Assembly (NCBI GenBank): GCA_033664045.1
Contig: GCA_033664045.1_3674.1
Reading direction: 5' to 3' (one strand)
DNA length: 64,000 nt
Source: a phage
The stretch's first letter is position 1; each line of letters starts with the position of its first letter. The position numbers were made by a program, and so were the translations under genes. The notes beneath the pieces are model-generated. The model was not told the DNA's origin, ran no database searches, and saw only the letters and a program-made list of their open reading frames with translations. Positions 29,484-63,951 of the stretch are shown piece by piece.

Positions 29484-29909
29484 ATGATCTATGAAATGCC
29501 AAAACTGATTCGCGACGATGCCCAAAACGCTCACACCATTATTATGGGCAAGCGCATGGATATTATTTGTCATAAAGATTTCTGGGAAGGGAGTTACTTC
29601 ACAGAATATTTTGGTAAACTGGATAATGGTCTGCTGATCCAGTTCTACACCGATGCGGAAAACAACATTCACTGGGAGTTCGAAACTGAAGATATCCATA
29701 AACTTTTCACCTTCCTAGGTATTAAGGTTGAGGCCAAGTTCGAAGAAGGTGAGTGCGACGATTGTGGATTCTACGAGGTAACAGATTTCTATCTCCCAAG
29801 TGGTGAGAACCTTTACTATGAAAGCCACTTCGGCAACTCAAATATGCCACAAGGTTGGGATGAGTTTTTTGAAATTGCGGAAGAGGAGCTGGCATACCGT
29901 GATTATTGA
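29484..29909 (+). CDS. Hypothetical acidic protein
   Basis: Track ORF. Confidence 0.5.
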   Translation: MIYEMPKLIRDDAQNAHTIIMGKRMDIICHKDFWEGSYFTEYFGKLDNGLLIQFYTDAENNIHWEFETEDIHKLFTFLGIKVEAKFEEGECDDCGFYEVTDFYLPSGENLYYESHFGNSNMPQGWDEFFEIAEEELAYRDY

Positions 29910-30357
29910 TACTGTAGAGGGAGATCTAATCTCCATTTTCAAGAAAGGGTCAGGCCACATGATCCACGGTTGTAACTGCTTTCACACAATGGGTGCAGGT
30001 ATAGCGAAAGATATTGCCCGTGAGTTCCCTCAAGCACTGGCAGCCGACAAAGAGACTGCCTATGGTAATCTAGACAAGCTGGGTATGTTTTCTTGTTGGG
30101 AGCATTTTGCCAAGAACAGGGTTGTATATGGGATCAACCTGTATACCCAGTTCTACCCAGGGCCCAATGCTGAATACTTCTCAATCATGAAAGGTTTTGA
30201 GCGAGTCAACGAGGTATTCAAAGGTGTGTCATTGCCGTTCTACATCCCTAAGATCGGGTGCGGCATAGGCGGTTTGAAGTGGGAGCACGTGGAAGATGTC
30301 ATTAATCTTGCAACCACGGATATTGATGTGGTTGTAGTAGAGTACAAAAAGTGTTGA
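29899..30357 (+). CDS. Macro domain protein, TARG1/DarG-like (ADP-ribose processing)
   Basis: HGCNCFHTMGAGIAKDI and YIPKIGCGIGGLKWEHV match the TARG1 pattern (CxxxMGAGIA … PRIGCGLDRLxWExV); GTG start at 29899 with AAGAGGAG site. Confidence 0.75.
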   Translation: MIIDTVEGDLISIFKKGSGHMIHGCNCFHTMGAGIAKDIAREFPQALAADKETAYGNLDKLGMFSCWEHFAKNRVVYGINLYTQFYPGPNAEYFSIMKGFERVNEVFKGVSLPFYIPKIGCGIGGLKWEHVEDVINLATTDIDVVVVEYKKC

Positions 30358-31655: not shown

Positions 31656-31845
31656 GCTTAAATCCGCATGGAACATTGCTGTAGGTGACGAGATCCGTAT
31701 CCCCGGTGGGAAGACCATTATGAAGATATCTCGTATTGAGTACGAAGGTGACCGTGTATTCCACATCTTCGCAGAAGATGGTCGAGAAATTTATATACAG
31801 GCAGGTTCTCACATTTATATCCGTAAGAAAGGGGACGACAAATGA
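31642..31845 (+). CDS. Hypothetical protein
   Basis: Track ORF. Confidence 0.45.
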   Translation: MLMFKLKSAWNIAVGDEIRIPGGKTIMKISRIEYEGDRVFHIFAEDGREIYIQAGSHIYIRKKGDDK

Positions 31846-32171
31846 CAGAGATCATCATTTCAACTGCAGGGTATGTGTTCCTGACAATCATTGCACTGAC
31901 TATTTTGGTGACAGTGTATGGGTTTGTTATCCTTCCTATCCTTGAGACATTTAGTTTGTGTCGGTGTTGGAGAAAAGCTTACGGTCCACAACCATGGAAG
32001 GACTGGCCCCACCTGGTGCGCTTAGCGTTCTCTTATGCTTACGATCACTCCAGTAGTGCATGCATAACCGGATACCACGCCCACAACTGGAGCTGGGAAG
32101 GGTTGAGGAAATGGAATGTTACAAAGACCATACCTCTGCGCATGTACAAACCTAAAAACAAAGACAGCTGA
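31842..32171 (+). CDS. Membrane protein (N-terminal transmembrane helix)
   Basis: IISTAGYVFLTIIALTILVTVYGFVILPIL hydrophobic segment. Confidence 0.5.
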   Translation: MTEIIISTAGYVFLTIIALTILVTVYGFVILPILETFSLCRCWRKAYGPQPWKDWPHLVRLAFSYAYDHSSSACITGYHAHNWSWEGLRKWNVTKTIPLRMYKPKNKDS

Positions 32172-32480
32172 TACTTGAAAATTCCTGGCATATCAAGTAT
32201 AAGGGGGATTTCTAAAATGGATTTCCTCCTTTTGATATTTCACCGGGCTGGATATTTTAAAATTCTTAGAAAATCAGAAAATGGATCGAAAACTAAAATG
32301 GATTTTTCAGAGTAGGCGCGACAAGCTGAATAACTCATCCTATCGTTTGCACCATATTCCAGGCCACAATTACAGATTTCCAGCACATGCTCCCACCCTT
32401 CTACTAGAACTTCCTCCACTTACCCTTTACCTTCTATGGTAACAATCTAACCACTATCTTGAAGTTGCGGTGCAGCTTTC

Positions 32481-32665
32481 CAGGTACTCGATCTACTTTT
32501 CATTTCAGGGCTTGGATTTTCTGAAAATTTTTCTCGATAAATTTCTCAGTACTCGATCTGTTTTTCGTTTTCTGAATCGGATTTTCTGGAAATCGTTCCG
32601 GATCTCGACCTGAAATTTTTGGGGACGAAATCGATTTTTCGTTTTCAGAAATGGATTTTTAAAAT
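32481..32665. repeat. Iteron-like imperfect direct repeats (three copies of about 45 bp)
   Basis: CAGGTACTCGATCTACTTTTCATTTCAGGGCTTGGATTTTCTGAAAAT (32481), CAGTACTCGATCTGTTTTTCGTTTTCTGAATCGGATTTTCTGGAAAT (32546), partial copy at 32626. Confidence 0.6.
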
Positions 32666-32773
32666 TTGTATATGGAAATATTTTAGGAGGTATTATTTTA
32701 TATAGAATTGTCACGGTAGGTAATTAGCATGCTAACTAAATTTATGAAATGCGAAAAGTTCTCATTTAGAATT

Positions 32774-32792
32774 TTGAATGATAATCATTCTC
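32774..32792. promoter_or_regulatory. Fur-box-like site
   Basis: TTGAATGATAATCATTCTC, about 15/19 to the Fur consensus GATAATGATAATCATTATC. Confidence 0.4.
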
Positions 32793-32801
32793 GTTTGCAG
32801 A

Positions 32802-32830
32802 ATAACGGGCACCCCCGGTGATTGTCTCCC
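32802..32830. repeat. Left arm of a perfect 29-bp inverted repeat
   Basis: ATAACGGGCACCCCCGGTGATTGTCTCCC; exact reverse complement at 41615-41643; a degenerate direct copy at 32937-32965. Confidence 0.8.
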
Positions 32831-32893
32831 GGCCCCTACTGCCCCGGCTTGTTATTATAGTAACACACAGGACAAAGAAAGCAAGAAGTTTTT

Positions 32894-32929
32894 TGCATAA
32901 ATTTTTAGACGATAATGATAATCGTTCTC
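32894..32929 (+). promoter_or_regulatory. Candidate Fur-repressed promoter
   Basis: TTGCAT, 17-bp spacer, GATAAT; the -10 lies inside GATAATGATAATCGTTCTC (32911-32929), 17/19 to the Fur consensus. Confidence 0.45.
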
Positions 32930-33187
32930 ATTTTATGCAGCGCCCATCCCCGGTGGTTGTCTCCCTGTCACCGGTGCCTGCCGTCCTTTCGATATGTATA
33001 TTGTGCCACCTGGCGGGGCCGCTGTCAACACTTTTCAAAAAATTTTTCTAACCTGATGCGCTAACCGCTGCAACCTGGCGGGGCCAGCCTGGCAGGACCT
33101 AACTGACCAGGTAGGAGAGAATGAAGGCTTGCAAACCTGGTGGGCCTATGCTATAGGATAGGTAACAATTGAAGAGGAGGTACAAAA

Positions 33188-33364
33188 ATGAAAGGTAATA
33201 TAATCCCCCTGGAAAATGTAGCTATTAATGACGCTGAGGCTATCGCCCTGGTTGAAAAGGCTATGGCGGGAGCGTTGGAACATAAAGAAGAGTACGAAAA
33301 AATGATGGTTAACCTGGCAGGGGCGGCGGCTGGAGAATTCTACCCAAAAAATAATTTTAACTGA
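33188..33364 (+). CDS. Small hypothetical protein (58 aa)
   Basis: Hand-translated; GAAGAGGAGG site 7 nt before the ATG. Confidence 0.5.
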   Translation: MKGNIIPLENVAINDAEAIALVEKAMAGALEHKEEYEKMMVNLAGAAAGEFYPKNNFN

Positions 33365-33367
33365 TGG

Positions 33368-33396
33368 TTGACAGCTCGTACAGTTATTGTTATTCT
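33368..33396 (+). promoter_or_regulatory. Sigma70-like promoter
   Basis: TTGACA, 17-bp spacer, TATTCT. Confidence 0.45.
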
Positions 33397-39553: not shown

Positions 39554-39838
39554 ATGGCTATTGTTACTGCTGGCGATGTAGTAGAAATGGAAGCAAAATA
39601 CTTAAAAGCGGGTATGCATATCCTACGGAATGATCAAGAGTTATTATTAACGATGGTCGACTATAATCCCGGCCAGGATTATCCAAGCATCGACTACTTT
39701 TTTGAGTATGTTGATGAAGAATTAAAAGAGGATGAGGCCTATTGCGGTGAGTTCTGCAATTTCTTTTGTCCTGATGAGGTTGTAAAGGTTATCTATCAAC
39801 CTGGCGTAGCTTTCCCTCTGCACGCTATCAATAAATAA
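39554..39838 (+). CDS. Hypothetical protein
   Basis: TAGGAG site. Confidence 0.5.
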   Translation: MAIVTAGDVVEMEAKYLKAGMHILRNDQELLLTMVDYNPGQDYPSIDYFFEYVDEELKEDEAYCGEFCNFFCPDEVVKVIYQPGVAFPLHAINK

Positions 39839-41342: not shown

Positions 41343-41534
41343 ATGAATATCGAACAAGTTAGAAAGGTATTAACGGTACTGCGTTATCATAATCATAGAA
41401 AGGTCATAGACGATCCTGATTATGTTGATTCAAGCCTGGAAGGGGATACACTGCAAGCCATAAGCAACATGCAAGAATTGCTCAAGCGCATGACAGAGAA
41501 AAACCGACCGGACTACATAGGCGAAAAAATATAA
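41343..41534 (+). CDS. Hypothetical protein
   Basis: Track ORF. Confidence 0.45.
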   Translation: MNIEQVRKVLTVLRYHNHRKVIDDPDYVDSSLEGDTLQAISNMQELLKRMTEKNRPDYIGEKI

Positions 41535-41550
41535 TCCTTATAAACTACAA

Positions 41551-41580
41551 AACAGGGCTTGCAATGGTCCTGTTTTTTGT
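41551..41580 (+). terminator. Rho-independent terminator
   Basis: AACAGG-GCTTGCAATGGT-CCTGTT followed by TTTTTG. Confidence 0.6.
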
Positions 41581-41614
41581 TATACTTGTTTCACGGGTGG
41601 CACCTGGCGACGGG

Positions 41615-41643
41615 GGGAGACAATCACCGGGGGTGCCCGTTAT
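41615..41643. repeat. Right arm of the perfect 29-bp inverted repeat
   Basis: GGGAGACAATCACCGGGGGTGCCCGTTAT is the reverse complement of 32802-32830. Confidence 0.8.
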
Positions 41644-41663
41644 ATAAAAAACTATAAAAACCG

Positions 41664-41692
41664 TTGACATCTGCCGGGTGGTGGGGTAGCAT
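41664..41692 (+). promoter_or_regulatory. Sigma70-like promoter
   Basis: TTGACA, 17-bp spacer, TAGCAT. Confidence 0.55.
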
Positions 41693-41746
41693 TTACCTTG
41701 AAGGGGCAAAAGTGCCCACACAACAACCAGAAGAGAGGAAAACACT

Positions 41747-42019
41747 GTGTCAAGCTGGATTAATCAAGAAGTAGAATCACGTTTTAATGCTATTTGGGAT
41801 CTCATCGAAAAAGAGGACGGAACATCAAGCCCCTACCTCAACAATTTGGAATTCCATTTTGTGGAAGCGATGAACGCAGAACATGATCACGAAGGTGGCG
41901 CGGATGATTTCGCTAAAGGTTATGGCTTTAACAATGCCAACGAAATGATCGAGTCGGTCGTACTCCAGGCTGAGGAAGATTATCAATTAAAAACGCTTGA
42001 ATTCTGCCGCCATAAGTAA
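41747..42019 (+). CDS. Hypothetical protein
   Basis: GTG start; AGAGAGGAAAA site. Confidence 0.5.
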   Translation: MSSWINQEVESRFNAIWDLIEKEDGTSSPYLNNLEFHFVEAMNAEHDHEGGADDFAKGYGFNNANEMIESVVLQAEEDYQLKTLEFCRHK

Positions 42020-42929: not shown

Positions 42930-42954
42930 GGGGCTTAAGGCCCCTTTCTTTTTG
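42930..42954 (+). terminator. Rho-independent terminator ending the rightward small-gene block
   Basis: GGGGC-TTAAG-GCCCC followed by TTTCTTTTTG. Confidence 0.65.
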
Positions 42955-43570
42955 TTTGCTCTTTTCCTACCACAAACGGCCCAGCCTGGCAAGTGGAATA
43001 ATTGACTAGCCATCAATCCCGCACACTGTACAAATATACATATAAAATAGATATTGCATAACCTTTCATTGTGTGGTAGCAGGGCCATTTTTACACGTTT
43101 TTCCTTCCAAAATTGCACGTAATGCAGCTATTGCACAAAATTTAACCTGATGCACATCTTCAGTATACTGTCAACAATTAAAAACCCTTATAAGTCATAC
43201 ACTTACACAAACCAAAAAGCGTGTCCTACGTGAAAAATCGGGTGTAACTATAGCCGACAGATCTCAGAATCCACGTACGATCACCATTCTATAGCCTGCA
43301 AAGTATTTATTCCAACCACAGAATAACGGAATAGTCAATACCTGTATAAAATAATTATTCGTATAAACTGCATAACATAAACCCGCCCAGGTGTCAACAT
43401 TTTTCGTAAACAGTCCGAAATTGTCACGGTGAGTTATCATAAATAGAGAAATATTTAGTCGTCTAATGTTTACTGTACATTACTATACTGACTGGAATCA
43501 TTAGATGACTAAGAGAAAGATAAGAAATAATTAACAATGTAAGTATTTTACCTGCAACAATAAGGCAACT

Positions 43571-43803
43571 ATGCAAACGAATGTCATGGCGCGACGGAGT
43601 CGCGACATAATATAAAAGCAGTAACCATCACCCCCGTGATAGTTTGTCTGCAAACTATTAATCAGATCATAGTTGCCTTGTATTTAGTTAATCATGACAT
43701 AACAAGCAAGGCAACTATAGATCTTCTAATAGTTGCCCTGCTTTTATATTATGTCATCTATTGTAAATCAGTTAATTGTTTTCATGCAAACGAATGTCAT
43801 GGC
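43571..43803. repeat. 20-bp perfect direct repeat pair and ATAGTTGCC repeats
   Basis: ATGCAAACGAATGTCATGGC at 43571-43590 and 43784-43803; ATAGTTGCC / GGCAACTAT at 43564, 43669, 43710, 43729; palindrome AGTTTGTCTGCAAACT at 43641. Confidence 0.7.
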
Positions 43804-43830
43804 TTATCATTTTTGAGTAAATAGTTTGTT

Positions 43831-44030
43831 TGTAAACAATCTATACGTAAACAGTTAACTATGTAAACTATTAGATATGTAAACTATTGGTTATGTAGAC
43901 TATCAGGAATGTAAACAGTAAAGCGAGTGAATAGTGAGAGCGTAAACAGTCAGGCATGTCAATTATGTTTAATGTGCCCAGTATGTCACTATTGTGTCTA
44001 AAGTGTCATAGTATGTCACAGTATGTCAGA
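43831..44030. repeat. Arrays of short direct repeats
   Basis: Seven copies of TGTAAAC-like motif at about 15-bp spacing (43831-43950), then four to five copies of GTATGTCA (43955-44030). Confidence 0.7.
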
Positions 44031-45446
44031 CAAGTTTTTCTCCTCTTTGTCAAGTGCTGCATGAAAAATTTACAAACTGGTATGGTAGCATTTTTGCGGC
44101 CCTGTTTACATTCAGTAATGTATGTATAATCCTTGTTGTGTGGGCGTTTGGACGTCTAGACGGTTGGAAGTCTGCAGGTCAATATCTAATCTATTGGCTG
44201 CTAACTATATCCCACACAAATAGTAAGAAATATGATTGTTATATGCGTAAACAGTAACTCATGTTATCAATCCCTGTATGTATCGCCAGTGGTGCGCATA
44301 ATGGGTATTATGTTAAATTGCCCGTAATGATAACTATTCTCACAATGATAGGTATTCTCATTCACCCCCACAAGATAGGTTGCAAATGTTGTGCCACTGT
44401 GTGAACGGCCTCACCTATTAATTTGCCTCACTGCCTCGATATTTGAGAATTGTTATAAGAATGAGAAGTATTCCCATTCCGTCCGCCTGGCAGCACTCCA
44501 GTCGCTACGGCTCATAACAGGGCAGAACTGGGTCCATTCAGATATTTCTGGCTGGCTCTTCAGGTCTGTGTGGGAAAAGCCAACCTCTCCTGCGGCGGGG
44601 AGGGGGTCAATTAAAAAATTTACGTGGTATATGTAGCGCTGTTCAGGTAAGGCATGTATTATGGGATGAAATCCTCTTCAGGCAATGATATTTGTGGGTG
44701 TGATATTTGCTGGAAAGCCAGATATGACGGGACTCCCGGCGGGGCAGGGGTGGTACAGACAGGGAAAATATGGAGGATGTGGTTGGGTGAATTGATCAGA
44801 CAGGTAGAGTATGGAATATGTTACAAGTATGTTAAATATGAAGGGTGAATATCTGTAGGATTTGTGTGTAAAATCAAAGACTTAAGTAGTGTTGTGGTAT
44901 TTTCTATAAATAATTCAAGTTTAATAGGTAATATTTGTCTCTATCCACTTTGTGTGGTAAACAAATTCAGATGAGATTGGTTTACAAGTGTATACATAAT
45001 ATACAAATTAAAGATACAAGAAACCCCCCTCCCCCTTCGGCTACCATTCACCTTTTCCTCTGACTGGTACTTAAACACTTATTCAGACTCTTCAGGTTAT
45101 CACCCATATATCATATGGCAGTGACTGGTGTCCTCCGGCCCCTCTTTCGTCACCCGTCCGCTTCGCCATGCTAATGCCATAGCCAAATGTTCGGTTGTTC
45201 ACCCTGTTCACTCAGGTGTATCTCCATACCCCTTCAAACCGAAGAGAACAGAAAACCCGAATTACTCGGTAAAAGAAAAGAGAAGAACTTAATTTTATCA
45301 AGATAGGCAAGAATGTCAAGGCATGACTGCTCACTAAACAAGCAAACAGTCATGTGCGGTAGGTAAGTGATTGTGGTTGTAGGAAATTTAATTGAAAGAT
45401 GTGTTATAGGTGCTTCCAGCACTTTAGCCTGGCAGCTAATTGTGTG

Positions 45447-45662
45447 TCAGTCCAGCGGTTCATCCTCTACTTCACTGAAATCAATGTTCATGGTCTCTTC
45501 CCAACCATCGATCTCAGCACAAGAGTGGAGTTCTTTAGGGTTTACTCCCAAAGCCTCAGCAACAGAGTCTATATTTAACACCTCTGGCAGGTATGATTCA
45601 TCGAATTCAAGGTAAATCAGGCCACGAGTGTTGTCAGCTCCACCAAATATTTCTATCTTCAT
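45447..45662 (-). CDS. Hypothetical acidic protein
   Basis: Track ORF; last gene of the leftward block. Confidence 0.45.
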   Translation of the reverse strand: MKIEIFGGADNTRGLIYLEFDESYLPEVLNIDSVAEALGVNPKELHSCAEIDGWEETMNIDFSEVEDEPLD

Positions 45663-61258: not shown

Positions 61259-62191
61259 TCATTTACCACAAATCTTCTTGTATACCTCTTCTACCGTGTC
61301 AAACACTTCAGGCCTGTAGTAGAAAAACTCAGTGCTACCGTCAAATTTTACAGGAAAGTTTATTTTATACTTGCTGAAGGCCTTATGCACAGATTTTTCT
61401 AAATCTACCATGTTTTGAGTTGATCCGCTCCATGTTTTTACTACGTGAAGAGTGTGGACACCTGCGCCAGATTTACGAGCACTGTTAAGCACCTCATTTT
61501 TCCTCCTGTGCATTTTAACGCATACACCGATTTTCATAAGTGTTGGCACTTCTAAGTCATCAACCATAATGTAGAGTTTACCGTACTCATGAGATAAGAA
61601 TCCATTTTGTGCGCATTTACAGCAGCCACGACCACTTTTTAGGTTATTAGGTTTAGCAGACCACTTATACCCACAAATTTTGCACCTACATTGCACTTTT
61701 GTGTTATCATTGGCAATTTCCTCTAATATTTCTATATCTGGGTTGGCTTTGTGGATAATTGCAGCATGCTCCTTATGGGTTAACGCTTGACTTTGCCCAC
61801 GTCTTAAGTCATAGCACTCTGGGCAGCCGTTTCTTTGGTATAAGTGGTTTTCAGGGTATTGTTCAAACACACCGTGTTCAGGGCAAACAATTTTTACAGG
61901 CGTTCTCATGTTCACATATTTGACTAATGAGTAATCGTACTTGTCCCCATGAACAGCCATAGCCTCTTTTATGAACTCTTCAGTGTTCTTTTTCGCTGAC
62001 CCACCACACCTTGGACAACCATGCTTCTTGAAAGCATGTGCCACAGGGGTTTGCCAGAACTCACCGTGCTCAGGACAAATTATGCACACAGGTGTCTTGT
62101 TGTTTTTATACTCCACTTTGAAGTAATCATATTTGTCACCATGTATAGTCTGAGCTTTTTCTATAAACTCTTCGGTTGTTAGTCTCCTCAT
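61259..62191 (-). CDS. Free-standing homing endonuclease-like protein (GIY-YIG-like/T5orf172-type C-terminus, two zinc-binding repeats)
   Basis: Two repeats …EEFIxKAxxxHGDKYDYxxVxY…CPEHGxFxQ…GCPxC; C-terminal KLYIM…MKIGV…R…E…H pattern. Confidence 0.55.
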   Translation of the reverse strand: MRRLTTEEFIEKAQTIHGDKYDYFKVEYKNNKTPVCIICPEHGEFWQTPVAHAFKKHGCPRCGGSAKKNTEEFIKEAMAVHGDKYDYSLVKYVNMRTPVKIVCPEHGVFEQYPENHLYQRNGCPECYDLRRGQSQALTHKEHAAIIHKANPDIEILEEIANDNTKVQCRCKICGYKWSAKPNNLKSGRGCCKCAQNGFLSHEYGKLYIMVDDLEVPTLMKIGVCVKMHRRKNEVLNSARKSGAGVHTLHVVKTWSGSTQNMVDLEKSVHKAFSKYKINFPVKFDGSTEFFYYRPEVFDTVEEVYKKICGK

Positions 62192-62230
62192 TACCAGACC
62201 AGACCCTTCCGCTATTCACTTTATATTGCA

Positions 62231-62259
62231 TACTATAGAAAAGAGGAATAGAAGTCAAT
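62231..62259 (-). promoter_or_regulatory. Sigma70-like promoter for the endonuclease gene
   Basis: Minus strand TTGACT, 17-bp spacer, TAGTAT. Confidence 0.45.
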
Positions 62260-62289
62260 AAAAACAAAAATGAGAGCATCCTTGCTCTC
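62253..62289 (-). terminator. Rho-independent terminator after nrdD (minus strand)
   Basis: Minus strand GAGAGCA-AGGA-TGCTCTC followed by ATTTTTGTTTTT. Confidence 0.55.
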
Positions 62290-62300
62290 AATCTCTTTCC

Positions 62301-63602
62301 TTATTTACTCAACGGACAACAGTCTACATTCCCAACATGTTTAACACGTTCGATAACCTCTGCTTGTTTACCTGTGTTATACGGTCTACTGTTCGGGCTG
62401 GAGAGATAGCCAGACACTCTTCGGATCACTGAGATATATTGTTCATCGTGGCATCCACACGCAGGGCAGCAGAACCCTTTAGCTGTTGCACTGAACTCAC
62501 CAGAGAAACCACACTTAAGACATTTATCCACAGGTTGGTTAATACCAAAATACATAATGTGTTTATACCCGAAATCGACAAGGGCTTCCAAAGCATCCAA
62601 GTTGTTTTTCAGGTTAGGTGTTTCTATGTATCCAATGTTGCCGCCAGAAGAGATCATAGCAAAACCTTCCTCATACTTCCACTTATCAAAAGGCGAGCTG
62701 TTGATCCATACTGGCTGATGGAAACTGTTGGTGAGGTATTCATGCTCGTGCTTCAACACTTCTGGGTATTCACGATCCAGACAGGTTGCAGCTTTATAGC
62801 ATAAACTCTCAGAAGGTGTGCCGTACAAGCTAAATGCTAGTCCACTTTCCTTCTTATATCGATCACAAGCATCTTTCATATGCTGAAGGATTCCAAGAGC
62901 TAAAGCCTTGTCACCCTCTCTGCCCAAAATTTGGCAGGTTTCATACACACCAATATACCCAATACTGATGGAAGCGTACCCGTCATAGAAGAGTTTATCG
63001 ATACTCTCTTCAGGATCCAGGCGAGCAAGAGCTCCTTCACACCACATGATAGGGTTCTGCCCAGCCTTGGTGCCTTTCAAACGATTAACTCTTACAAGGT
63101 GAGCCTCATATGCCAAATCCAAGTATTCGTCAAGAACGGCAAAGAAATCAACACCTTCCGTCTTAGCTTTTGCCGCAATCATTGGCAGGTTAAGACTAAC
63201 AACCCCCAAGTTGAATCTGCCGAGGTATTTCTCCTCACCTGTTTCCAAGTCATTGTATTTGCTAAGAAAACTCCGGCAACCCATGCTCGTTACTTTGCCA
63301 TCTGTAGAGCCTGTCACTTTACGATTTAGTGGAACAGAAACAAAGTCAGGATAAATCCGCTCTGCAGAGCATTCCAGAGCTAATCGTTTCAAATCATAGT
63401 TAGGATCTCCAGGGTTCATGTTGACACCTTCTTCTAGGAAGAACAGCACTTTAGGGAACACAGGTGTGATACGTTCTTCACCAAGACCCATTTTGTGGAC
63501 TTTCAAGTAGTTTTTGGTAATCATTCTACCAAATACTGAGGTGTCCAGACCTAAACTTAATGTGATGAATGGAGTCTGCTGTCTCCTCCCCTGTGTTTCC
63601 AC
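62301..63602 (-). CDS. nrdD: Anaerobic ribonucleoside-triphosphate reductase, C-terminal portion only
   Basis: C-terminal zinc ribbon CLKCG…CPACGC and glycyl-radical motif RRVSGYLS; ORF begins at a GTG three codons after an in-frame stop and is shorter than a complete NrdD. Confidence 0.8.
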   Translation of the reverse strand: METQGRRQQTPFITLSLGLDTSVFGRMITKNYLKVHKMGLGEERITPVFPKVLFFLEEGVNMNPGDPNYDLKRLALECSAERIYPDFVSVPLNRKVTGSTDGKVTSMGCRSFLSKYNDLETGEEKYLGRFNLGVVSLNLPMIAAKAKTEGVDFFAVLDEYLDLAYEAHLVRVNRLKGTKAGQNPIMWCEGALARLDPEESIDKLFYDGYASISIGYIGVYETCQILGREGDKALALGILQHMKDACDRYKKESGLAFSLYGTPSESLCYKAATCLDREYPEVLKHEHEYLTNSFHQPVWINSSPFDKWKYEEGFAMISSGGNIGYIETPNLKNNLDALEALVDFGYKHIMYFGINQPVDKCLKCGFSGEFSATAKGFCCPACGCHDEQYISVIRRVSGYLSSPNSRPYNTGKQAEVIERVKHVGNVDCCPLSK

Positions 63603-63618
63603 AGGGCCAGACTATCTC

Positions 63619-63951
63619 TTACTCTACTTCAATAAGATAATAACCCTTTATTGTGAGATGCTTACCTTCGGCATTTCCTTCGATAGCCCTATGAACGTTA
63701 CCTACGTTCAAATTTAAGGCTTTTGCACAGGCATAGAGTGAAGGATATTCACCCACCAAGGTTTTCCCTTTGTATGCCTGCACTTTCCTATAGCACTTGC
63801 CTGGGCAAAGCCCTGTTCGGAAAGCATGTCTCTTATTATCTTCCGGCAAAACCCACTCTAGGTTAGACGGATGATCATTCAATGTATTGCCGTCTTTATG
63901 ATTCACTTCCCAGTTTTCAGGGTCTTCTGGGACATCTGGCAAACAATACAA
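63619..63951 (-). CDS. HNH homing endonuclease
   Basis: WEVNHKDGNTLNDHPSNLEWV HNH motif; ends 16 nt before the nrdD fragment, in a different frame. Confidence 0.7.
   Translation of the reverse strand: MYCLPDVPEDPENWEVNHKDGNTLNDHPSNLEWVLPEDNKRHAFRTGLCPGKCYRKVQAYKGKTLVGEYPSLYACAKALNLNVGNVHRAIEGNAEGKHLTIKGYYLIEVE

Follow-up and report, generated by a model that had tools for sequence, protein, structure and literature searches.

A conserved gene-free region with Fur-like boxes overlapping predicted promoters in rV5-like phages and their relatives

The locus described here is about 1 kb of phage DNA with no convincing open reading frame (ORF) between two blocks of genes. It occupies positions 32172–33187 of a 64,000-nucleotide stretch of phage DNA (GenBank assembly GCA_033664045.1, contig GCA_033664045.1_3674.1), referred to below as the window, and positions 32100–33250 match more than 100 genomes of rV5-like coliphages (Vequintavirus) with 94–97% identity. 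The original prediction, made from the letters of the window, had noted imperfect direct repeats, a repeated short motif, two sites close to the consensus for the iron-responsive repressor Fur and a promoter overlapped by the second of them, and had proposed that the region might be a switch responding to iron, serve as a replication origin or encode a small RNA. Every sequence element that it listed was found at or near the position given, beyond chance. We consider the chance slightly better than even that the region is a conserved cis-regulatory hub with a promoter switch that is gated by host Fur and would respond to iron. The in silico evidence covers how well the sites match, how rare and conserved they are, where they lie with respect to promoters and the lack of a Fur homologue in the phages; Fur binding, promoter activity, iron dependence and interference between facing promoters are steps that we infer from it.

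The site at 32911–32929 (GATAATGATAATCGTTCTC) agrees with the Fur consensus GATAATGATAATCATTATC at 17 of 19 positions and is the only one in the window within three mismatches (0.03 expected). The second-best consensus match in the 64 kb is at 32774–32792 (TTGAATGATAATCATTCTC, 15/19), so the two sites originally singled out are the top two. To score them, a symmetrised 21 bp matrix was built from 13 sites in Fur-regulated Escherichia coli K-12 promoters (fepA-fes, entS, entC, fepB, fhuA, feoA, ryhB, cirA, exbB, fecI, fhuF with two sites, and gpmA), each being the best match to the 7-1-7 motif within its promoter region. On this matrix box 2 (32911–32933; 21-mer TAATGATAATCGTTCTCATTT at 32913–32933) scored 25.9 bits and box 1 (32776–32796, GAATGATAATCATTCTCGTTT) 24.2 bits. 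These values lie at the top of the range of the E. coli training sites, which scored 9.6–24.9 bits when each was left out in turn, and are as high as those of gpmA, fecI and ryhB. A third, weaker box that the original prediction did not contain, box 0 (32747–32767, AAATGCGAAAAGTTCTCATTT), lies 29 bp upstream of box 1 and scored 16.6 bits. The phage boxes share their half-site ATTCTCATT with the ryhB, gpmA, exbB, fhuA and fepB boxes, and box 1 has the 15-mer TAATCATTCTCGTTT in common with the fhuA box. Beside each strong box there is a weaker overlapping site at a 6 bp offset (32907, 14.6 bits; 32770, 8.3 bits), and overlapping sites at 3 or 6 bp offsets are a property of Fur clusters (Chen et al. 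2007, PMC2189734).

Scores of this size are rare. In 300 shuffled versions of the window no site reached 24 bits, and sites of at least 16 bits occurred at 0.10 per shuffle. No site in a 45 kb control from a related phage reached 14 bits, and every site of 20 bits or more in 94.5 kb of E. coli DNA was a known Fur site. Identity of the boxes as Fur operators is thus strongly supported in silico.

The boxes were also the best-conserved part of the region across six named genera of the Vequintavirinae and Stephanstirmvirinae. A sensitive blastn search returned 215 phage records, and outside the genus only approximately 32745–32832, which holds boxes 0 and 1, a predicted promoter (P1) and a conserved element (X1), aligned, with 80–89% identity. 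The corresponding loci were examined in 11 relatives, namely PVP-SE1, GAP31 and 4MG (Seunavirus), CR3, POP15 and KaOmega (Certrevirus), KNP2 (Mydovirus), Hena1 (Henunavirus), the unclassified Serratia phage ChuuTotoro, and ukendt and phiWec190 (Phapecoctavirus, Stephanstirmvirinae). In all 11 the match sits in a gap of about 0.7–1.3 kb that is either geneless or has at most one short ORF call on the minus strand, and in all 11 the boxes are kept: the palindrome AAATGAGAATCATTCTCATTT is present in 1–7 copies scoring 14.6–27.7 bits, most of them exactly 29 bp apart. Box 0 of the window falls in this 29 bp register of tandem boxes in the other genera. Copy number rises to 4–7 in tandem in Certrevirus and Phapecoctavirus, and PVP-SE1 and Hena1 have a single box in the examined locus of about 3 kb. 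A metagenome scan with a degenerate promoter pattern gave matches that were mostly due to chance, with only a handful of loci representing true relatives.

For comparison with the E. coli matrix, a phage operator matrix was made from boxes taken by their position in the 29 bp register and not by score. The two agree in base frequencies (r = 0.91) and in information-content profiles (r = 0.88). No homologue of E. coli Fur was detected by tblastn in any phage record of these groups, which makes host Fur the simplest and the likely ligand of the boxes. The recorded hosts are all Enterobacterales, which have this Fur box in common.

The positions of the boxes relative to promoters point in the same direction. 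A rho-independent terminator on the plus strand (hairpin 32201–32231, U-rich tail to 32240; −14.9 kcal/mol, z = −2.57) ends the upstream gene block (gene 31842–32171). In three relatives (L126, L006 and L073) a G-to-A change in this hairpin converts a G.U pair to A-U. Transcription of the small-gene block must consequently restart downstream of the terminator, and new promoters are needed. Two rightward promoters are predicted. P1 (32774–32803) consists of TTGAAT at 32774–32779 and CAGAAT at 32798–32803 separated by 18 nt, with a predicted start at about 32809, and box 1 covers its −35 hexamer and spacer. P2 (32893–32922) consists of TTGCAT at 32893–32898 and GATAAT at 32917–32922, and box 2 covers its −10 hexamer. 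The overlap of the second Fur site with this −10 had been predicted and was found, but the spacer given with it as 17 nt is 18 nt in the sequence. P2 was not listed by a promoter scan because it agrees with the consensus at 8 of 12 positions and the threshold was 9. All of the Vequintavirinae genera examined keep the P1 hexamers TTGAAT and CAGAAT (or CTGAAT). Within each array TTG opens the promoter-proximal box alone, the distal boxes beginning with A or G followed by AAATGA, and this restriction of TTG to the proximal box argues that the hexamer is a real −35.

Each rightward promoter is faced by a predicted leftward one, 45–65 bp away, with a copy of element X in the overlap. Opposite P1 there is a perfect TATAAT on the minus strand (32859–32854; predicted leftward start approximately 32847), and opposite P2 there is a minus-strand TTGACA-N17-TGgCACAAT promoter (33028–33000; predicted start approximately 32993) that has 10 of 12 consensus positions as well as the upstream TG. 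Both were invariant in an alignment of six genomes 89–96% identical to the window, which was also used for the non-coding test and for counts of variable columns given below. The region thus contains two modules, the first made up of boxes 0 and 1, P1, X1 and the minus-strand TATAAT, and the second of P2, box 2, X2 and the facing promoter, and the two are a tandem duplication (repeat families D6 and D8). Downstream of module 2, three plus-strand ACCTGGCGGGGCC repeats (33007, 33072 and 33134, within 33007–33150; repeat families D4 and D11) occupy the leader of about 190 nt of the gene that begins at 33188; approximately 50 nt of this stretch is missing in relative L073. Sequences within two mismatches of the motif AACCTGGCGGGGCC were found at 33007, 33072, 33311 and 39838 (four matches, 0.23 expected), with a weaker copy at 33134, and the copy at 39838 supplies the 5′ half of GGGGCC-GAAA-GGCCCC, a hairpin resembling a terminator.

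If Fur binds here, dimers of Fe2+-Fur in an iron-replete host would occupy the boxes and occlude P1 and P2. Iron scarcity, or titration of the Fur pool by replicating phage genomes, would then open both promoters. Fur occupancy would decide which of the facing directions wins, either rightward into the small genes from 33188 or leftward across the boxes into the direct repeats that lie upstream of them.

Several observations weigh against control by host Fur. The training sites were picked by their likeness to the consensus, so the matrix leans towards the consensus and is not independent of it; the 17/19 match at 32911 does not depend on the matrix. P1, like P2, has only 8 of 12 consensus positions, and both are mediocre promoters. 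The rV5 genome paper predicted 33 promoters but none inside the region, the nearest being P195A at position 33368 of the window (PMC3606486 Table S4). The −35 hexamer of P1 is lost in Phapecoctavirus, and the boxes of module 1 are lost in relative L012. No connection with iron is recognisable in the downstream genes, and in the literature neither binding or expression data for the boxes nor a transcriptome for these phages was found. At position −4/+4 the phages prefer G (0.69) and E. coli prefers T (0.68), though both are restricted to G or T. The strict 29 bp period of separate palindromes is unlike the usual arrangement of chromosomal Fur clusters, in which sites mostly overlap at 3 or 6 bp offsets, and such regular spacing could suit a phage protein instead.

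These last points lead to an alternative in which the palindromes are operators of a dimeric DNA-binding protein encoded by the phage, an early or middle repressor or activator with Fur-like specificity that binds cooperatively to the 29 bp arrays. The separate palindromes at a strict period, in up to seven copies, and the preference for G at −4 would fit such a protein, and small helix-turn-helix proteins are encoded by these phages (for example WZX10687 of Enterobacter phage EC152). Evolved EC152 has a mutation in what its authors call a ‘transcriptional regulator’ in addition to mutations in the region (PMC13307863); the protein had no significant Pfam match. On the other hand, the motif fits Fur at all of the informative and uninformative positions, as the two correlations indicate, and its scores equal those of the best chromosomal Fur sites. 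So exact a coincidence would have to persist through two subfamilies, and no candidate protein is tied to the locus. We regard a phage-encoded ligand as distinctly unlikely.

Another possibility is that the boxes serve mainly as a sponge, with hundreds of phage genomes, each carrying 3–10 strong boxes, titrating host Fur and so de-repressing host iron uptake and RyhB to the advantage of the phage, while promoter control is secondary. Multicopy Fur boxes do titrate Fur, which is the principle of the Fur titration assay (FURTA), and the 4–7 tandem boxes of Certrevirus and Phapecoctavirus come without added promoters. There is also a second cluster of Fur-like boxes in the window, at 44325, 44343 and 44459 (44325–44479; 17.7, 17.0 and 13.2 bits), inside another gene-free region, and this cluster is kept in phage MaxTheCat. 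A sponge would have no need of a proximal box that always overlies a promoter exactly and keeps a constant distance to X, and a single box is all that PVP-SE1 and Hena1 have in the roughly 3 kb locus examined. We consider a role mainly as a sponge decidedly improbable.

The prediction of about 1 kb without a convincing ORF held up. In GenBank records of relatives the stretch is either unannotated or filled with small ‘hypothetical proteins’ that disagree between records in position and strand. All of the flanking real genes on both sides of 32172–33187 are on the plus strand, and every minus-strand ORF of the region is interrupted by stop codons in several of the six aligned genomes, while a 47-aa plus-strand ORF lacks a conserved start codon. 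The sole ORF open in all six (53 aa, 32281–32442) has no Shine-Dalgarno sequence, and its variable sites at codon positions 1, 2 and 3 number 21, 19 and 10, compared with the usual coding pattern of 6, 6 and 13 in the upstream gene. As it varies least at the third position, it behaves in the opposite way to a coding sequence. A 30-aa ORF at 32729–32821, preceded by GGAGG in some relatives, was considered and rejected since its conservation stops at Vequintavirus.

Much of the region varies less than the adjoining genes. There are 1–4 variable columns per 50 nt in 32250–32299 (where a single column varies among the six genomes), 32550–32599 and 32750–33049, compared with 13–16 in the coding flanks. 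A region that is conserved yet not coding implies constraint on the DNA or RNA rather than on protein. The left part contains a near-invariant block of short repeats (32209–32310) with two copies of GATATTT and with AAAATGGAT at 32214, 32279 and 32295, followed by a variable spacer of about 160 bp (32311–32473) with 17–21 variable columns per 50 nt. The repeated short motif that had been predicted, AAAATGGATTT, has perfect copies at 32214 and 32295 and a copy with a single mismatch at 32648, and the related AAATGGAT is found at 32279. Window-wide there are eight matches to AAAATGGATTT where 3.7 are expected, a number equalled or exceeded in 3 of 100 shuffles. At the equivalent position in other genera there are similar repeats, GATATTTG and GAAATC/AAATGG.

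Between the variable spacer and the boxes lie the three imperfect direct repeats that had been noted, which are iteron-like and on the plus strand (32474–32659). They belong to a 47 nt repeat family (D1) with members at 32474, 32539 and 32613 that are 70–74% identical and spaced by 65 and 74 bp. The cores (families D1 and D2) are GGTACTCGATC at 32483, AGTACTCGATC at 32548 and a degenerate third unit at about 32623. T-tracts occur in every unit, and the surrounding 32500–32799 is the most AT-rich and T-tract-rich segment of the region (GC 31%). Tandem Repeats Finder (TRF) returned no array other than one of 12 bp and misses the iterons, whose identity is too low for it. The possibility that the repeats are non-conserved low-complexity sequence was not borne out. 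Three-unit arrays with the consensus GGGTWCTCGATCGATTTTTC..ATCGTATTTTTTCT..GAAAAAATTTTT were found in nine other Vequintavirinae phages (POP15 possibly has more units), belonging to three named genera beyond Vequintavirus (Seunavirus, Certrevirus and Mydovirus) and including the unclassified Serratia phage. Their units are 63–78 bp long and lie from a few tens of bp to about 130 bp upstream of the box array, and the cores CTCGATC, TTTTC and ATCGTAT are at least 90% conserved across 21 aligned units from seven phages. No iterons are present in the Phapecoctavirus and Hena1 loci. An exact TCGATAAATT, the high-affinity H-NS nucleation motif (Lang et al. 2007), was found at 32534–32543, between iteron units 1 and 2, and is the sole copy in the window.

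The iterons suggest that the region could instead be a replication origin or a packaging-initiation (pac) site, at which the repeats assemble an initiator or terminase, the promoters activate or prime, and Fur is an accessory. The conserved iteron core (CTCGATC, TTTTC, ATCGTAT and A6T6), kept in four Vequintavirinae genera and the unclassified Serratia phage, would be in keeping with this, as would the AT-rich segment with its T-tracts, the two leftward promoters that point into the iterons and the higher conservation of the region than of the adjoining genes. The arrangement resembles the iteron origins of lambda (ori), P1 (oriR) and theta plasmids in having at least three repeats in the same orientation, an AT-rich flank, phased T-tracts and promoters reading in. 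It differs in that the units are 65–78 bp long instead of 17–22 bp and that there is no recognisable adjoining initiator gene and no DnaA box. None of the flanking genes encodes a recognisable initiator or terminase, their proteins belonging to PHROG families of unknown function with no Pfam domain. No match to the DnaA box TTWTNCACA was found between 17.7 and 44.8 kb. Elsewhere, 5 of the 10 DnaA-box matches of the window fall within 2.4 kb, at 61383–63729, and the total for the window is at the level of chance (8.2 expected). GC skew shows a local dip at 32200–32650 but no lasting shift, the cumulative skew rising on both sides, and GATC sites are not enriched (4 in the region, 331 in the window).

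Enterobacter phage EC152 (Seunavirus, GenBank accession number PP681140.1) bears on the same question. Its record starts and ends inside iteron 1 (L168/L169), and relative to GAP31 the junction is without approximately 8 nt of the core TACTCGAT. Six of eight evolved EC152 lines carry the changes 4 C>T and 23 G>T (PMC13307863), and in an alignment made here both changes restore the iteron consensus. Linearisation inside an iteron and return to the consensus would suit an origin or pac site, but these hints could also come from a break in the assembly at a repeat or from variants already present in the phage stock. Further points count against an origin or pac site, as Phapecoctavirus and Hena1 keep the Fur boxes and X without iterons, and the window has an equally good candidate in the gene-free region at 42.9–45.4 kb. 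In this second region (42950–45450, about 2.5 kb) plus- and minus-strand gene blocks converge, and it is more repeat-rich than 32172–33187, with TGTAAACNRT at least eight times at 43840–43950, GTATGTCA four or five times at 43960–44030 and CATGCAAACGAATGTCATGG twice. It corresponds to the ‘non-coding’ box of the rV5 genome paper (PMC3606486), contains the second cluster of Fur-like boxes and could itself be the true origin or pac region. For 32172–33187 we regard an origin or pac function as unlikely.

Combining the Fur switch with the iterons yields a more speculative model. If Fur sets the outcome at the facing promoters and leftward transcripts enter the iterons, the start of replication or packaging could be conditional on iron, and the box arrays could at the same time drain Fur and induce iron uptake. 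This extension has, in our view, little probability, but if true a group of virulent Enterobacterales phages would be using a host metal sensor as a developmental checkpoint.

The element in the overlap of the facing promoters, X (CCCCGGTGATTGTCTCC), is conserved and unexplained. In the region it occurs on the plus strand as X1 (32813–32830, CCCCGGTGATTGTCTCCC) and X2 (32948–32965, CCCCGGTGGTTGTCTCCC, part of repeat family D6), each about 25 nt from a Fur box, and it is kept beside the proximal Fur box in all of the relatives examined. The sequence CCCCGGTGRTTGTCTCCC has three copies in the window where 0.05 are expected. The third copy of the element, X3 (41615–41632, minus strand), is located between genes 41343–41534 and 41747–42019 and has no Fur box, the highest score on the Fur matrix within 41501–41800 being 2.6 bits. 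Within 41540–41700 the immediate neighbours of X3 are the rV5 promoter P168 and a bidirectional terminator (AAAACAGG...CCTGTTTT), and by its sequence X3 is laid out like a stand-alone small-RNA gene or a leader element of gene 41747. On the reverse strand a TATAAT-like hexamer precedes every X copy, mostly at a distance of 22–29 nt (38 nt at X2).

X was also found in an unrelated 46.8 kb contig (IMGVR_UViG_3300027123_000194; L007 and L010) that has four intergenic copies of TATAAT-N22-25-GGAGACAAWCACCGGGG, three of them reading TGnTATAAT. A blastn search of the phage collection with this contig gave no match, and six of its ORFs had none in PHROG. The presence of X there indicates a portable phage element that occurs independently of Fur boxes. 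Bacterial genomes scanned for the TATAAT-N-X arrangement gave three matches in unrelated taxa, which were judged to be at the level of chance.

One explanation for X is that the locus specifies small RNAs, with X as the 5′ domain of a phage small-RNA family, two members of which would be controlled by Fur and a third encoded at 41.6 kb, and with an exposed UUGUCUCC loop pairing with ribosome-binding sites. In favour of this, X starts a few nt past the predicted start of P1. At X3 a promoter-like site is accompanied by an A-rich linker and a terminator hairpin, and X3 folds weakly better than shuffled sequence (z = −1.7); in the unrelated contig the copies are bracketed by promoter-like sites and terminators. 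Beside the conserved loop the stem shifts from CCGG/CCGG to CCCGG/CCGGG, GCG/CGC and TCG/CGA. Against this, X1 and X2 have predicted promoters but no convincing terminator, and in both orientations they fold no better than shuffled sequence (z −0.4 to +0.5). In a MAFFT alignment of 17 X copies the outer stem was without covariation, two variable pairs occurring in all four combinations, and changes in the inner stem were only partly compensated. Rfam gave no family match for the region, for the loci of six relatives or for 41–46.5 kb, the only hit being a chance-level match to the Lst thermometer (E = 0.26), and it is the opposite strand of X that the strongest promoter signals (TGnTATAAT) would transcribe. 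A small-RNA locus is thus very improbable as the main explanation. Several of these alternatives are compatible with one another.

Of the possibilities in the original prediction it is the Fur-operator part of the iron switch that found strong in silico support, through the site scores, the promoter overlap and the conservation. Among known systems, the Fur-repressed promoters of E. coli (ryhB, fhuA, gpmA, fecI and entC) are similar in operator sequence, in overlap with the −35 or −10 and in having weaker sites at a 6 bp offset. The phage sites differ in lying in the gene-free control region of a virulent phage as separate boxes with a 29 bp period, in preceding genes with no known iron function and in that each promoter faces another across X. 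The convergent arrangement has a parallel in the P2-like coliphage 186, in which pR and pL are face-to-face promoters about 62 bp apart. In both cases convergent sigma-70 promoters (here predicted, and 45–65 bp apart) have a repressor operator on one of them, but here there is no lysis-lysogeny decision, the presumed repressor comes from the host and the arrangement is duplicated in tandem.

Host Fur operators have been seen on phage DNA before. The stx1 gene of Shiga-toxin phages has an upstream Fur box. A Fur box is also found at the sitABCD operon of lambdoid coliphages (PMC6969025). Those prophage boxes regulate accessory host-fitness genes of temperate phages, whereas the boxes described here are in a core control region of strictly virulent phages from two subfamilies. 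In the literature searched, no report of Fur boxes in virulent phage genomes was found, the mentions of phages being confined to the sit operons and stx of temperate phages. The boxes suggest that a whole phage group may read the iron status of its host, for which no earlier description was found in this group.

The phages that carry the boxes include the rV5-, PVP-SE1-, CR3- and phAPEC8-like groups, which are widely considered for therapy and biocontrol, and boxes are retained in phages of Escherichia, Salmonella, Klebsiella, Cronobacter, Pectobacterium, Serratia and Erwinia. If Fur binds, phage expression and possibly replication would depend on the iron status of the host. Iron status in laboratory broth is very unlike that in the gut, urine or blood, so the efficacy of the phages in vivo might be affected. 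The three-unit iteron array and X are now also defined as conserved non-coding elements that lack an explanation.

Outside Vequintavirus, all of the genera examined have CTTTACAAATCTTTACAAA in place of module 2 and after it a highly conserved block of about 100 nt, here called Y (GAACTACCGGCGATCCACCTTCC...GGTACGTTAGCCCCGCCTTTTCGCCGTGGGGTGGCG), which lies approximately 130–240 nt downstream of the proximal Fur box (for example L013 1636–1740; L013–L018 and L160–L164). One hairpin in Y changes in a compensatory manner (CCAGG/CCTGG, CCAG/CTGG and GCCG/CGGC), and the stretch GATCCACCTTCC resembles the anti-Shine-Dalgarno end of 16S rRNA. No Rfam match was found for Y, which on its sequence is a candidate structured RNA.

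With the exception of one weak Macro-domain match upstream, all families found for the proteins of the flanking genes in Pfam and PHROG were of unknown function. The Macro-domain match (PF01661, 25.5 bits, cutoff 22) is in a 179-aa protein encoded at 29818–30357 and extends across just 32 residues. Sixteen unannotated records titled ‘Campylobacter phage’ (MG0656xx) are 94–96% identical to the coliphage region, and they are probably mislabelled or contaminant rV5-like coliphages.

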